Below, one piece after another: positions 25,906 to 33,500 of a stretch of DNA of 64,000 nt (position 1 is its first letter; each line of letters opens with the position of its first letter). The DNA comes from a virus (Duplodnaviria; Caudoviricetes): positions 32,001-96,000 of the IMG/VR virus record IMGVR_UViG_3300020336_000481; one strand, given 5' to 3'. The notes beneath the pieces are model-generated. The model was not told the origin of the DNA, did not search any database, and saw only the letters and a list, made by a program, of their open reading frames with translations. Position numbers and translations under genes: made by a program.

Positions 25906-27072
25906 ATGTCAGAACTATTAGAAGGACGCTGGCAGGATACCAAAAGTGCTCTACTAGAAGGATTACAAGGTACTAAGAAAAGTGTAATGGAAACTACACT
26001 TGAAAATACCCGTAAGTACTTGTCAGAGAGTGCAACAGCTGGTGCAACATCTGCCGGTAACGTCGCTACATTAAATCGTGTGATTTTACCAGTTATTAGA
26101 CGTGTTATGCCAACTGTTATTGCTAACGAAATTGTTGGTGTTCAGCCTATGACTGGCCCTGTGGGACAGATTCACACACTAAGAGTCCGTTATTCGGAAT
26201 CAAATGATAACGTAACAGCAGGCGATGAGGCACTTAGCCCATTCAAAATTGCTACTGCGTATTCAGGTACAGGTACTGATCCAGATGGTAAAGCTAACGC
26301 AACAGCCGCACTTGAAGGTTCAGCTGGTAGAAAACTTTCTATCCAGATCCTAAAGCAAACTGTAGAAGCAAAAACCAGAAAGCTATCAGCAAGATGGACT
26401 TTTGAATCTGCACAAGATGCTCAATCACAGCACGGTATTGATATCGAAGCTGAGATTATGGCAGCTCTTGCACAAGAGATTACCGCTGAGATCGATCAAG
26501 AAATTCTTGGAAGCCTAAGAGGGTTAGCAGGAACTATTGAAACTTACGATCAAGCAGCAGTAAGTGGTACAGCTACTTTTGTTGGTGACGAACATGCAGC
26601 ACTTGCAGTTCAAATTAACAGAACAGCGAACACTATCGCTCAGCGTACAAGAAGAGGTGCAGGTAACTTTGCAGTTGTTAGCCCATTTGCGTTAACAATC
26701 CTACAAAGTGCTACTACTTCAGCTTTTGCTAGAACAACAGAAGGTACTTTTGAAGCACCTACAAACACTAAATTCGTTGGTACATTAAACAACGCAATGA
26801 AAGTGTATGTTGATTCATATGCAGCTGATAATACACCAGTACTTGTTGGTTACAAAGGTTCAAGCGAATCAGACGCAGCAGCGTTTTACTGCCCATATAT
26901 TCCATTAATGAGCAGTGGAGTTGTACTTGACCCAGCAACATTCGAACCTGTCGTGAGCTTCATGACACGTTACGGATATGTTGAGTTGTCAAACACAGCG
27001 TCATCACTTGGTAACGCAGCTGATTACTTAGGTGAAGTTGCAATTACTTCAAGTAATGTAAGCTTCAGCTAA
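25906..27072 (+). CDS. gp23: Major capsid protein
   Basis: RRVMP..IA.EIVGVQPMTGP.GQI, AKTRKL.ARWT.E.AQD, EI.AEID.E, FYCPYIPL, F.P...FMTRYG. Confidence 0.97.
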   Translation: MSELLEGRWQDTKSALLEGLQGTKKSVMETTLENTRKYLSESATAGATSAGNVATLNRVILPVIRRVMPTVIANEIVGVQPMTGPVGQIHTLRVRYSESNDNVTAGDEALSPFKIATAYSGTGTDPDGKANATAALEGSAGRKLSIQILKQTVEAKTRKLSARWTFESAQDAQSQHGIDIEAEIMAALAQEITAEIDQEILGSLRGLAGTIETYDQAAVSGTATFVGDEHAALAVQINRTANTIAQRTRRGAGNFAVVSPFALTILQSATTSAFARTTEGTFEAPTNTKFVGTLNNAMKVYVDSYAADNTPVLVGYKGSSESDAAAFYCPYIPLMSSGVVLDPATFEPVVSFMTRYGYVELSNTASSLGNAADYLGEVAITSSNVSFS

Positions 27073-27093: not shown

Positions 27094-27123
27094 AAAAAGG
27101 GCGGCTTAGGTCGCCCTTTTTTT
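27094..27123 (+). terminator. Intrinsic terminator after gp23
   Basis: aaaaagggcggc-ttag-gtcgccc followed by a T run. Confidence 0.9.
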
Positions 27124-27151
27124 ATGACTAAAACCCTAACCGAAAGGATTT

Positions 27152-27298
27152 ATGGCTCGTGTTAAATTTAATCCAACCCTAGAAGCACATGAATACACAA
27201 AAAAGAAAACATCAATAGGCGGAGGAAAACATTCCAAAACTATGATGAATAAAAGTAAAAGAAGAAGCTACAAAAAGTATAATGGACAAGGAAAGTAA
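27152..27298 (+). CDS. Small basic protein (48 aa), below the ORF-track cutoff
   Basis: MARVKFNPTLEAHEYTKKKTSIGGGKHSKTMMNKSKRRSYKKYNGQGK; SD AAGGA upstream. Confidence 0.75.
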   Translation: MARVKFNPTLEAHEYTKKKTSIGGGKHSKTMMNKSKRRSYKKYNGQGK

Positions 27299-27325
27299 TT
27301 TTTTTAAATTTTGGTAAAAAAGAGG

Positions 27326-27354
27326 TTGACTTCTGAATAAAAGTTTGCTATATT
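27326..27354 (+). promoter_or_regulatory. Sigma70 promoter with extended -10, driving the ncRNA
   Basis: TTGACT (27326-27331), 17 nt, TATATT (27349-27354), with TG at 27346-27347. Confidence 0.85.
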
Positions 27355-27360
27355 AAGTAC

Positions 27361-27577
27361 ATAAGCAATAAAAGAGTAATTAACTTTTATTTGTAGTGCA
27401 TCGAAGAGGCCTTTACCAGAAGGGCTTAAGATGACTAGCCAGGGGTGGTACCCAGGGTCTGTAGTAGAAATACGCAGGTTCACATCGCAGTCACTAGCGG
27501 GGTTAGGTTGTACAGAAACAGAATGGTATTCCGGACTGTGCTTGTAGGTGAAACCGAGTCCTACCTACTTTGCTTAT
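27361..27577 (+). ncRNA. Structured ~217 nt non-coding RNA, family unassigned
   Basis: Begins at the predicted TSS; 5' ataagcaa pairs with 3' ttgcttat; internal helices with G-U pairs and a GAAA loop; followed by a terminator; no listed ORF. Confidence 0.8.
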
Positions 27578-27583
27578 CTTTTT

Positions 27584-27617
27584 AAAAGCCCTAGCATTTA
27601 TTTGTTAGGGCTTTTTT
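27584..27617 (+). terminator. Intrinsic terminator of the ncRNA
   Basis: aaaagccctagca...tgttagggc followed by a T run. Confidence 0.88.
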
Positions 27618-27625
27618 CTCTTTTG

Positions 27626-27720
27626 ATAAATACATATGTCAATATTTAGTGTACCGCTGACAACGGTGGACTTATGCGGAAACCAACCGCGTATGACATA
27701 GAACGTCAATAAAAAGGAGA
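27626..27720 (+). promoter_or_regulatory. Late promoter ATAAATA (27626-27632) plus a structured 5' leader
   Basis: Leader holds gtgtaccg/cggtggac, tatgcgg/ccgcgta and tgac/gtca helices before SD AAGGAG. Confidence 0.6.
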
Positions 27721-27725
27721 AAAAA

Positions 27726-28085
27726 ATGGGAAGACCAATTAATAAAAAATATTTTGGTGTTGTCGGCGATAACACACAGCCAACAATAGCAATTAGATAT
27801 CACGATGGATCAGCTACTAGAGAAGGTTATATACTTTCTCAAAGAGGCACAAACAAATTTAACTGTGACAGTGCAGCTGGCTCAGCAAAAGTTTGTAGAC
27901 TTGTTAATGAGACTGCACCTAACGCTGAAGGCGAATGTTCTTTAGTAGGTTACGCAGACGGTGGCACAGCAATTATTCTTAAGAAAATGTTCAATAGAAC
28001 AGCAATAGACTGGAATAGCAATCGTTACAAGTGGACAGTTGAAGACGATTCAACTCAATCATTAATTAGATTAACAGCTATCTAA
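27726..28085 (+). CDS. Small virion structural protein
   Basis: Late promoter, strong SD; MGRPINKKYFG...GYI..QRG..KF; first gene of the fibre region. Confidence 0.6.
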   Translation: MGRPINKKYFGVVGDNTQPTIAIRYHDGSATREGYILSQRGTNKFNCDSAAGSAKVCRLVNETAPNAEGECSLVGYADGGTAIILKKMFNRTAIDWNSNRYKWTVEDDSTQSLIRLTAI

Positions 28086-30571: not shown

Positions 30572-33500
30572 ATGGCACAAGTAGGTAGAATATCCGGTCC
30601 GTTATTAGAAGCAAATTTAGAAAGAAACGGCAAAAATCTTTCTTTTCGTAACGACTTAGATACCACACAATTATTATTATTAGACGTAGTAAATGGCAAA
30701 CTAGCAGTAAACTACGCTACACCTAGCCGCGAATTAGAAATTGCAGGCACAACAAGATCAACCAACTATCTCTCTACAGATTCCACACTTGCAGATATTA
30801 TATTTGATAATAATGAAATAAAAAATATTTCAGGTAATATTAATTTTAATGCTACAACTGCTATTGTATCACCAAACATTGAAACTGACAATATAAGAAT
30901 TACTGATAATACAATATCTACACATAGAAGTAATGCAAACTTAGAATTACGCCCTTGGAGAGATTATCAACTAGTTAACGGTGATCCGTATACGACAGAA
31001 TTGCTTGCCGGACTTACAGCGGCGTCATCAGGTGGATCTCACACTTACAAAGCATTTTGGGAAGTAGTTTTACCAAGCGGATTTGCAAGAGGAGATGTAA
31101 ACGAAAGTGGTGGTATTGACATTGACGATGTTATGGCGTTCCTTAGTGTAGCTAGAGGAATTACTACATCAGGCAGTACATACGACCGCAGTGTAGCAGC
31201 AATTGAAGCAAGTTTACCTACATTGGAAGTTAAAAGCAATTTAAATGTAGATGGAGCAATTAATGCTACCGGCAATATTACAATGGACGGTAATATTACA
31301 ATAGGTGATAATCAAGCTCAAGATACTGTAGATTTTAATGCAGAATTTATTAGTAACATTGAACCAGATGTTACTTATACATACAACATAGGAAGTTATA
31401 ACGATCGTTGGTTACGTCTTGATACTAATCTTGTAAACGGACAAAAAGTAATTGCCGGTAATTATATTGCTGGCGGCGTTGACATAGCACAACGACAAGG
31501 AAATATTTTTTATGTTAGTGTTAACGGTACAAACACCAATAGTGGAGAACATCCACAATCACCTTTTAAAACAATTAAACATGCTTTAGACGCTGTTGAT
31601 GCTAGTTCAGCAGGCCCTGTAACTATTCACGTTTATCCAGGAGACTACGAAGAACAACTGCCGTTAACAGTGCCATCTAATGTTACAATACAAGGACATG
31701 ATTTAAGAAATACTGTAATTAGACCAGATACTAGCAGCCAAAGCGAAGACGTATTTTTACTTAACGGTGAAACAACAATTAAGCAACTTACAATTAAAGA
31801 CTTTTATTACGACAGTGGAAATAATAAAGGACATGCATTTAGATTTGCAAATAATGCTGTAATTACAACACGTAGTCCTTACATACAAGATGTAACTGTA
31901 ATTACACAAGGTACAACTACAAGTGCAAGTGATCCAAGAGGTTTTGCAAGTGGAGATGCAGGTAAAGGCGCTTTAATAGATGGTGCAGTAGTACCAGCTT
32001 CGAGCAACGAAGCAAGTATGTTATTCCATGCTGCAACTTTCATTACACCAGGCGTTGATGCTATTACAATGACCAATGGTGTAAGAGTAGAATGGCTTAA
32101 TAGTTTTACATATTTTGCCAACAGAGGATTATATGCAGTACGAGGTTCAACAGGACATCAAAGTCCCGACGGGAGTACAATAAATTACGGAGCAGAAATA
32201 CGTTCAATTGGATCTGCAAATGTATACGGAAACAAAGGTGCTGTAGCAGATGGTGCCGGCACACTAATGTATCTTATTAATCACAACTTTGCATACATAG
32301 GCGTTGGTAAGTTTGTTGACAATGATCCAAGTAGATCTATACAAGCAAACGAAGTTGAAGAATTAAATTCAGGTAAAGTTTATTTTAGTTCAACAGACCA
32401 TTTAGGTAATTTTAGGGTAGGAGATAGCTTTCTAGTTGACCAAGAATCAGGAGAAACTACACTTAACTTATCTGAAGCAGAAATAGACTCTTTTGGTGGC
32501 TTAAATATTACAACTAGTGGTGCATTAACAGTTGTAAACGGAAACCTTGTAGAAACAGGAAATATTAGATTACAAGGTAATCAAATTTTATCTACAGCAA
32601 ACGATATTAACATTGTTGCAAGTGGTTCTAATAATATTAATTTTTTAACAAGTTTAAACATTACTAATAATTTAGATATTACAGGTAATTTGACAGGTGC
32701 TGGTAATTTAAAATTAGGCGATGAAAGTGTAGATACTGTAACATTTAATGATCCTTTTGATCAAAATATAAAACCTGCTGTGTCAGGAACCTTTGATTTA
32801 GGAAGTCCTACACTACGCTGGAAAAATGCATTCTTATCACAAGCAGAAATTAGCGATATAAAAATATTTGATAACGTTATACAGACTAATGTTTCTAATG
32901 CAGACTTAGAACTTCGTGCAAATGGTACTGGTAAAATATTAGTACCAAACAATAATGTAACTTTTAGTAATAACTTAACTGTCAACGGCACAACTAATTT
33001 ACAAGGTCTGTCAACTACAGGAAATATTGTACATTCAGGCAATTTACAATTAACAGGGAACTTTGATGTTACAGGTAACTTATCTGCAACACAAAATTTA
33101 ACAGTAAACAGTGATGTTTCCTTTCAAGAATTTAATATAACAGGGAACTTAATAGAAACTACACTTTCAGATGCAGATTTAGATTTACGTGCAAATGGCA
33201 CAGGAGACGTAGTTTTTAATGACTCAGCAACATTTAATGCATTAACTATTACACAACATTCCGACCTTATTGATGTTGACGTAACTTCTAGCGTACAAGC
33301 TACAGACTTTACAACAGATCAAATATTAGTTAGAGAAAACTTTATAGAAACAAGATTTAGTAATGCTGATTTAGATTTACGTGCTACTGGCAACATTGTT
33401 ATTCAAGAAAATACTACAGCAGAACAAAATCTAACAGTAAACGGCACAACAACATTAAAAAATACAGGAATTACAGGTACACTAACGCATGTAGGAAACA

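Follow-up and report, generated by a model that had tools for sequence, protein, structure and literature searches.

The locus and its setting

The window analysed here (64,000 nucleotides, positions 32,001 to 96,000 of IMG/VR virus record IMGVR_UViG_3300020336_000481) carries, behind a phage capsid gene, a short stretch in which a sequence-only reading had seen a noncoding RNA gene that it could not assign to a family. Is such a gene really there, to which family does its RNA belong, and does the RNA control the genes that follow it or act on its own? The record is a 147 kb virus sequence with a CheckV completeness of 42%. Its head module within the window consists of a prohead protease, a scaffold-like protein and the major head protein (25906–27072), and because this capsid protein is 67–72% identical to those of Vibrio phage 2.275.O, Sinorhizobium phage Phosso, PA5oct and GAP32, all giant myoviruses, the source is by sequence similarity an uncultured giant T4-like phage. 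The capsid gene is followed by its terminator, a 48-aa ORF (27152–27298) and the RNA cassette, and 3′ of the cassette lie genes of 119 and 418 aa in a late structural region. The location first given for the RNA, between capsid and fibre genes, is correct as to the capsid gene upstream; the “fibre” part goes unsupported, as neither the 119-aa nor the 418-aa gene has an assignable function. The 48-aa ORF encodes a very basic protein (phrog_17967, without a Pfam family), a 55-nt stretch of its DNA matches Pelagibacter phage HTVC115P at 84% identity, and it is kept in just a few related loci. The parts of the cassette are as follows (A2 is the model-based alignment described below).

27309–27354, plus strand: promoter part, with A-rich stretch, −35, TG and −10
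27326–27331, plus strand: −35 element TTGACT, read in the sequence
27346–27347, plus strand: TG of the extended −10, read in the sequence
27349–27354, plus strand: −10 element TATATT, 17-nt spacer from the −35
27361–27577, plus strand: manA-family RNA, P0–P9, 217 nt (covariance alignment, covariation)
27361–27368, plus strand: 5′ strand of P0, ATAAGCAA, pairs with 27570–27577; 91% paired in A2
27570–27577, plus strand: 3′ strand of the closing stem P0, TTGCTTAT
27369–27389, plus strand: P1 hairpin, whose loop holds UAAUUA (27377–27382)
27393–27396 with 27565–27568, plus strand: P2, covaries
27399–27433, plus strand: P3a, internal loop M1 (invariant) and P3b; L3 UACCA at 27414–27418
27434–27508, plus strand: four-way junction P4-P5-P6-P7 (covariation, manA alignment)
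27434–27440 with 27501–27508, plus strand: P4, covaries
27442–27453, plus strand: P5 with L5 GUGGUA
27455–27481, plus strand: long P6 with GAAA tetraloop (27467–27470)
27485–27500, plus strand: P7, with L7 at 27489–27496
27510–27541, plus strand: P8 hairpin, with L8 UGGUA at 27524–27528
27544–27568, plus strand: stretch with the P9 hairpin GUAGG/CCUAC, its 11-nt L9 (27549–27559) and then the P2 3′ strand (27565–27568)
27584–27621, plus strand: intrinsic terminator, stem 27584–27615 and then a T run; 3′ end of the cassette

The window copy taken by itself

The promoter, TTGACT-17-TGcTATATT, matches the consensus at 10 of 12 positions and has an extended −10, and its predicted start, A27361, is the first base of the 8-bp closing stem P0; the terminator that follows the RNA has a 13-bp stem (−19.2 kcal/mol) and a T run. 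All three elements had been noticed from the letters of this one copy, and all three were borne out when homologs were compared (below). Within the window copy alone they do not beat chance: promoter-like matches are no commoner than in shuffles (18 versus 21.2, and 3 versus 2.7), which makes a single match not significant, and the single-copy fold is weak (z = −2.0), with a minimum-free-energy structure that misplaces the central junction. The RNA has a G+C content of 44% versus 35% in the window, a value among the highest 2.9% when all 217-nt windows are ranked. It is the comparative data that settle, at the level of sequence, the reality of the unit.

Assignment to the manA family

A sensitive scan aligned 27369–27574 with the whole of the Rfam manA model (RF01745, model positions 1–192) at 54.7 bits, with E-values of 3.5e-13 and 1.7e-14 in two scans; this score lies 0.5 bit under the curated gathering cut-off of 55.2, and at Rfam gathering thresholds the sole hit reported in the window scan was a freshwater-2 RNA, with manA not reported. 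Twelve of 12 close homologs scanned match manA end to end at 45–62 bits; three of them exceed the cut-off (61.9, 60.4 and 57.4 bits) and the rest score 45–55 bits. The RNA can thus be placed in a family after all, and the caution in the sequence-only reading that a strong Rfam hit would remove novelty largely applies: the family itself is already known, and much of the novelty is removed by the manA assignment. A covariance model built here from the clade (R1) scores the clade’s full-length members at 166–243 bits and five outlying full-length copies at 118–146 bits, and it picks up classical manA RNAs on other viral contigs as well, 38 of them, with scores of 22–50 bits. Because 166–243 bits on R1 stand against 22–50 for classical manA, the window RNA is, as far as sequence comparison goes, a diverged member of the manA family that belongs to a separate clade.

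The family is known as a cis-regulatory riboswitch candidate (Rfam; Weinberg et al. 2010, PMC2864571; Rfam update PMC7779021), and our results suggest that the Rfam manA cut-off and its “Cis-reg” label miss a large phage clade. Relative to that literature, what appears to be new is the large giant-phage clade straddling the Rfam cut-off, the organisation as a free-standing unit from promoter to terminator whose mobile boundaries are defined, the additional stem P0 and the comparative support for assembly loops (below). The most diverged members, loci L286 and L289 (123–128 bits on R1), are without the sigma70 promoter and without stem P0, and have a Photobacterium-like P1 loop (CGACGG) and a terminator-like hairpin 5′ of the RNA; they may be intermediates between the classical and free-standing forms.

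Comparative structure of the RNA

More than 150 viral contigs carry the RNA. Two independent DNA patterns, one built on L5/P6 and the other on P9, gave at least 120 matches each in IMG/VR, and the first homolog set comprised 71 unique copies. RNAalifold, applied to these 71 unique sequences, recovered the manA architecture independently, with compensatory changes in 26 of 45 pairs. When the same 71 sequences (alignment A1) were tested with a 76-pair structure built here, 93.1% of cells were paired versus 82.8% in shuffles, and 42 pairs had double changes versus 24.5 ± 2.4 in shuffled alignments (none of 500 as high) and 11–17 with slid partners. In the model-based alignment (A2, 85 distinct sequences), which leans towards structure because it was fitted to the model, 94.7% of cells are paired and double changes occur in 53 of 73 pairs versus 36.6 shuffled and 21–26 with slid partners. 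The window copy itself has all 66 of the 66 pairs of the comparative structure canonical. Covariation shows the predicted RNA to have the nine-helix manA fold, with a P4-P5-P6-P7 four-way junction enclosed by P2. Stem P0 lies outside the Rfam manA model, and 8 of its 8 pairs show double-sided changes somewhere in A2.

Helices P4, P8, P1 and P3b vary with compensation, and the bases of M1 (RNA positions 43–47 and 67–69) are 99% identical across homologs. In M2, at the base of P4, sequence comparison shows pair 74/148 switching between A-U and G-C, and P6 is laid out as a 7-bp stem, an internal loop, a 3-bp stem and the GAAA loop. Most of the helices that had been drawn from the window copy are upheld by covariation, namely ataaaag/cttttat (P1), catc/gatg (P3a), aggccttt/aagggctt (P3b), ggg/ccc (P5), the GAAA-capped arm (P6), gtacag/ctgtgc with gaat/attc (P8) and gtagg/cctac (P9). 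The exceptions are the tagt/acta extension and the alternative pairings tgact/agtca and tagtg/cacta, in which changes on one side are not compensated on the other and whose bases are part of P2, P4 and L7. Because ORFs are not conserved (the longest ORF drops to 14 aa across homologs), the protein-coding reading was rejected.

A promoter-to-terminator unit that moves between sites

A promoter with at least 9 of 12 consensus matches lies at the same distance from the RNA in 63 of the 71 unique copies (89%), compared with 2.2% at random positions, and 61 of the 71 have the TGn extension. A strict intrinsic terminator is found in 59 of the 71 (83%, versus 3.9% at random positions); these terminators begin a median of 5 nt after P0, and their hairpins fall into 37 unrelated sequences among the 59 copies.

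Among the matches listed, about 105 of 120 loci have the cassette 3′ of the capsid gene, at a distance of 120–1090 nt and in the same orientation; in about 10 it comes after gp32-uvsX-uvsY and ahead of a nucleotidyltransferase-like gene, and in one it is near a DNA ligase gene. Large contigs have one cassette copy each. When copies from the capsid and uvsY contexts are aligned, homology (93–94%) extends exactly from −52 to +254, counted from the first base of the RNA; it begins immediately 5′ of the −35 box and stops where the terminator ends. From this alignment it is concluded that promoter, RNA and terminator travel together from one genomic site to another, as a segment of about 306 nt. 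The view of the locus as a self-contained RNA gene, equipped with a promoter of the host (early) type and a terminator and embedded in a late structural region, is upheld by the conservation of these parts and the movement of the unit. The UvsX of the window record is 79% identical to that of a uvsY-context contig, and the window record has no RNA copy at uvsY; by sequence, capsid-context and uvsY-context phages are of the same kind. In loci found through the downstream protein, the RNA retains 72–86% nucleotide identity even where that protein is only 32–40% identical.

T4 has its oriF at the position after uvsY. The cassette could therefore be read as a replication-origin or primer transcript of the T4 ori(uvsY) type, in which the RNA made from the promoter forms an R-loop that primes DNA synthesis, and its place directly after uvsY in the loci mentioned above, as well as the order of promoter and then short RNA, agree with such a role. 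However, the extensive compensatory changes point to the structure of the RNA as the target of selection, not to an R-loop or DNA unwinding element, a strong terminator closes the unit, and most copies lie behind the capsid gene; we regard an origin function as very improbable.

In locus L205 the DNA upstream of the cassette is 99% identical to uvsY-context contigs and that downstream encodes homologs of the capsid-context 119-aa and 418-aa proteins, with the switch point at the 3′ end of the cassette. This reflects either recombination at the cassette or an assembly chimera through a shared repeat.

Relation of the RNA to the downstream gene

Does the RNA then regulate the gene behind it? As a cis-regulatory leader or riboswitch, it would be the aptamer and the hairpin at 27584–27615 the expression platform, and a ligand would set read-through into the 119-aa gene and onward. 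The cassette has the order promoter, structured RNA, intrinsic terminator and same-strand genes that transcription-terminating riboswitches have, Rfam and Weinberg et al. 2010 (PMC2864571) class manA as a cis-regulatory candidate, and the terminator is absent in 7 of the 71 clade copies, where read-through into the next gene is possible. Unlike in terminating riboswitches, however, the RNA and the terminator share no strand: they neither overlap nor compete, and partition-function folding of 59 homologs gave a probability of 0.96 for pairing of the terminator 5′ arm within the terminator and 0.008 for its pairing with the RNA, and an antiterminator search found none. Homologs share the 3′ end of the RNA but have terminator stems of unrelated sequence, which makes a conserved antiterminator impossible. 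In addition, the gene 3′ of the cassette varies with the site (structural, nucleotidyltransferase-like and others), the cassette boundary coincides with the terminator end, and the 119-aa gene is preceded by a late-type box and a freshwater-2 leader of its own. Cis regulation of the next gene is on this evidence improbable for the window clade.

The terminator-less copies at L166, L192, L193, L196, L210 and L218 have, about 40 nt after the RNA, a C-rich, G-poor spacer (for example CTTTCCTTTACCCATTCCC) that runs into a late-type box. This spacer could be a Rho-dependent stop, or there could be real read-through.

Classical marine and cyanophage manA RNAs share with the window RNA the nine-helix fold, the four-way junction, a GUGGU-type L5, an ACC-type L7 and P9. 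They are also phage-borne, and 15 of 33 lie right behind a sigma70 promoter that matches 11–12 of 12 consensus positions. The differences are an extra P0, a long P6 and an L3 with UACCA in the window clade, and the phage that carries the RNA, which is of the giant T4-like kind here and not a cyanomyovirus. Terminators follow 11 of the 33 classical RNAs (33%, with a control rate of 10.5%) versus the 83% above, and for most classical RNAs an ORF begins no more than about 100 nt downstream, in line with the description by Weinberg et al. (PMC2864571); the 22 of 33 that have an ORF start at this distance and no terminator are a point for the riboswitch reading. At the classical loci L068, L082, L112, L101, L144 and L154, a terminator hairpin with AGGGG or GAGGG is followed by TTTT(T)ATG, so that an ATG lies inside the T run, and the called ORF starts 20–70 nt further on. 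If that ATG opens the next gene, this arrangement would fit cis-regulation in those classical members, unlike in the window clade.

Loops and predicted self-association

We consider it likely that the locus is a free-standing, diverged manA-family RNA gene whose product acts in trans and associates with itself, and that it does not regulate the next gene in cis. The self-association part draws on a 2026 cryo-EM preprint (10.64898/2026.07.01.735769), in which manA RNAs are reported to build pentamer-based decamers and a 60-mer cage in vitro. An L5-L7′ contact is present in all forms solved there; short-P6 forms have L8-L9′ contacts, long-P6 forms use L3-L8′ and GNRA(L6)-P6′ contacts, and L1-L1′ contacts join pentamers. 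The loops of the window RNA are complementary in the corresponding way, L3 UACCA to L8 UGGUA and the UGGU of L5 GUGGUA to ACUA in L7.

The junctions, M1 and L8 are 94–100% identical in the first homolog set while helices vary. L5 and L6 are as invariant as L8, but the first search pattern fixed most bases of L5, P5 and L6, and the second, independent (P9) scan relaxes this forced invariance only in part. Among the copies found by the second scan, P5 has compensatory changes and a GNRA L6 is kept on differing P6 stems. In most copies, however, L5 matches L3 just as well as L8 does. One diverged clade has the change A58U in L3 matched by U164A in L8, with 5 bp between the cognate loops versus about 4 when crossed, and the same clade has L5 GUUAUA with L7 GGAUAC; L3-L8 pairing is therefore separable from L3-L5 pairing. 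The L5 change G87A, in two sequences, turns a G·U into an A-U pair with L7 ACUA. This loop-loop covariation amounts to one or two evolutionary events. In L1 a palindrome, UAAUUA or UAGCUA, is present in 60 of 80 distinct rows versus 22% in shuffled loops, and the switch between UAAUUA and UAGCUA is a double change that retains the palindrome, so the UAAUUA of the window RNA is a candidate for an L1-L1′ contact between copies. From these loop analyses, copies of the window RNA probably pair with each other.

The two Photobacterium RNAs solved by cryo-EM as decamers, manA_pho34_A767 and manA_pho_A28C (10.64898/2026.07.01.735769), were compared with the window RNA by eye on the published sequences, and they share with it a long GNRA-capped P6, the complementarity of L3 and L8, and an identical P9 stem, GUAGG/CCUAC, with an 11-nt loop. 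The Photobacterium contact set, I1 (L5-L7), I2 (L3-L8) and I3 (GNRA on P6), can form in the window RNA. L3/L8 is UACCA/UGGUA in the window RNA versus UCAGC/GCUGA in Photobacterium, a compensated difference between subfamilies, and L1 is the palindrome UAAUUA versus GACGACGG in Photobacterium, with a few clade members keeping the GACGG type. The Photobacterium RNAs are chromosomal (bacterial), whereas the window RNA is a phage cassette.

A different trans-acting role would be that of a monomer that binds a host or phage protein or mimics its substrate, for example as a regulator, a tRNA-like mimic, a decoy or an RNA directed against host defence. The layout as a free-standing early gene would suit such an RNA, its invariant single-stranded junctions and loops could be protein-binding sites, and P9 is loosely T-arm-like. 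This last likeness, which the sequence-only reading had raised as a possible tRNA mimic, proved superficial, P9 with L9 being a standard manA element. A tRNA or tRNA-like element was ruled out, since the P9 loop has 11 nt (a T-loop has 7 nt) and ARAGORN found no tRNA or tmRNA in the window. The RNA has no tRNA or tmRNA features and no match to another Rfam family, a monomer does not predict mutually complementary sets of loops together with a self-complementary L1, and the solved manA relatives are homo-oligomers; we think a monomeric decoy or mimic unlikely.

For the self-associating RNA gene the sequence of events would be as follows. Host RNA polymerase would start at about 27361 from the strong sigma70-type promoter, which in a T4-like phage would mean early expression, and would stop at the intrinsic terminator at about 27616–27621; the predicted product is an abundant transcript of about 255–260 nt, with both ends of the RNA clamped by P0. 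To judge by the loop complementarity and by the cryo-EM structures of other manA RNAs, it would act in trans as an RNA particle. Copies would join via L5 GUGGUA with L7, L3 UACCA with L8 UGGUA and the self-complementary L1, the GAAA loop L6 would dock on a neighbour’s long P6, and pentamer-based closed oligomers would result. Such a particle might be a scaffold, or a sponge for a host factor or a small molecule.

GOLLD and ROOL RNAs are often carried by phages or prophages. Like the window RNA they are products of free-standing noncoding RNA genes, and they self-assemble into closed multimers by loop-loop contacts; they are unrelated to it in sequence and fold and have several hundred nt versus 217 nt, and in the window RNA assembly is a prediction. 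They are large RNAs that form RNA-only homo-oligomeric complexes (Nature 2025, PMC12286853).

Carried to its end, this reasoning leads to the proposal, tentative and in our estimate rather doubtful, that giant marine T4-like phages make early in infection, from a mobile cassette of about 306 nt, a closed RNA-only particle (stacked pentamers or a cage) as a functional product. The assembly loops are among the most conserved parts of a self-contained, mobile and strongly conserved RNA gene, which argues that selection acts on the RNA particle and not on cis-regulation. manA has been an orphan riboswitch candidate since 2010, and RNA-only decamers and a 60-mer cage were reported in vitro in 2026. 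If the proposal is true, it is the particle that would carry out the function, perhaps by serving as a scaffold or compartment or by soaking up a metabolite or host factor; the in-vitro manA cages would gain their first biological setting, and the riboswitch label would be overturned for the window clade.

Searches in other genomes and neighbouring RNA elements

A blastn search of 27100–27800 against 50,697 phage records gave matches confined to the 48-aa ORF region and found no cultured system. Vibrio phage 2.275.O and PA5oct, which have the nearest capsids, gave no manA match, a weak negative as the tool’s control genomes also gave none. In the bacterial genome search the sole hits were two contigs of 153 kb and 335 kb, L279 (PBPT01000082.1) and L280 (PBPT01000016.1), which are binned in one Red Sea Candidatus Neomarinimicrobiota MAG and have the cassette behind the capsid gene in the same context. 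They are most likely giant-phage contigs mis-binned into the MAG, and a weak hint as to the host at best.

Other small RNA elements accompany the cassette. In the window it is followed by a T4-late-promoter-like box, GATAAATAC (27626–27634), and then by the freshwater-2 RNA (RF02980, 27653–27728, 61.6 bits versus a cut-off of 49.9), at whose 3′ end lie the SD and the start codon (ATG) of the 119-aa gene. The literature search for freshwater-2 returned unrelated papers only. The motif is found 3′ of the cassette in 6 of the 12 homolog loci scanned, and by sequence this region looks like a conserved structured late 5′ leader. On the other side, 5 of 12 related loci, L225 (3946–4131), L192, L177, L181 and L164, have a glutamine riboswitch aptamer (RF01739, 47–60 bits) in the interval from the capsid gene to the manA cassette, and the window is without it. 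In L225 this aptamer has a late-type box 5′ and an SD with a 32-aa mini-ORF 3′, and the mini-ORF extends into the manA promoter. The interval 3′ of the capsid gene is a hot spot for small RNA cassettes.
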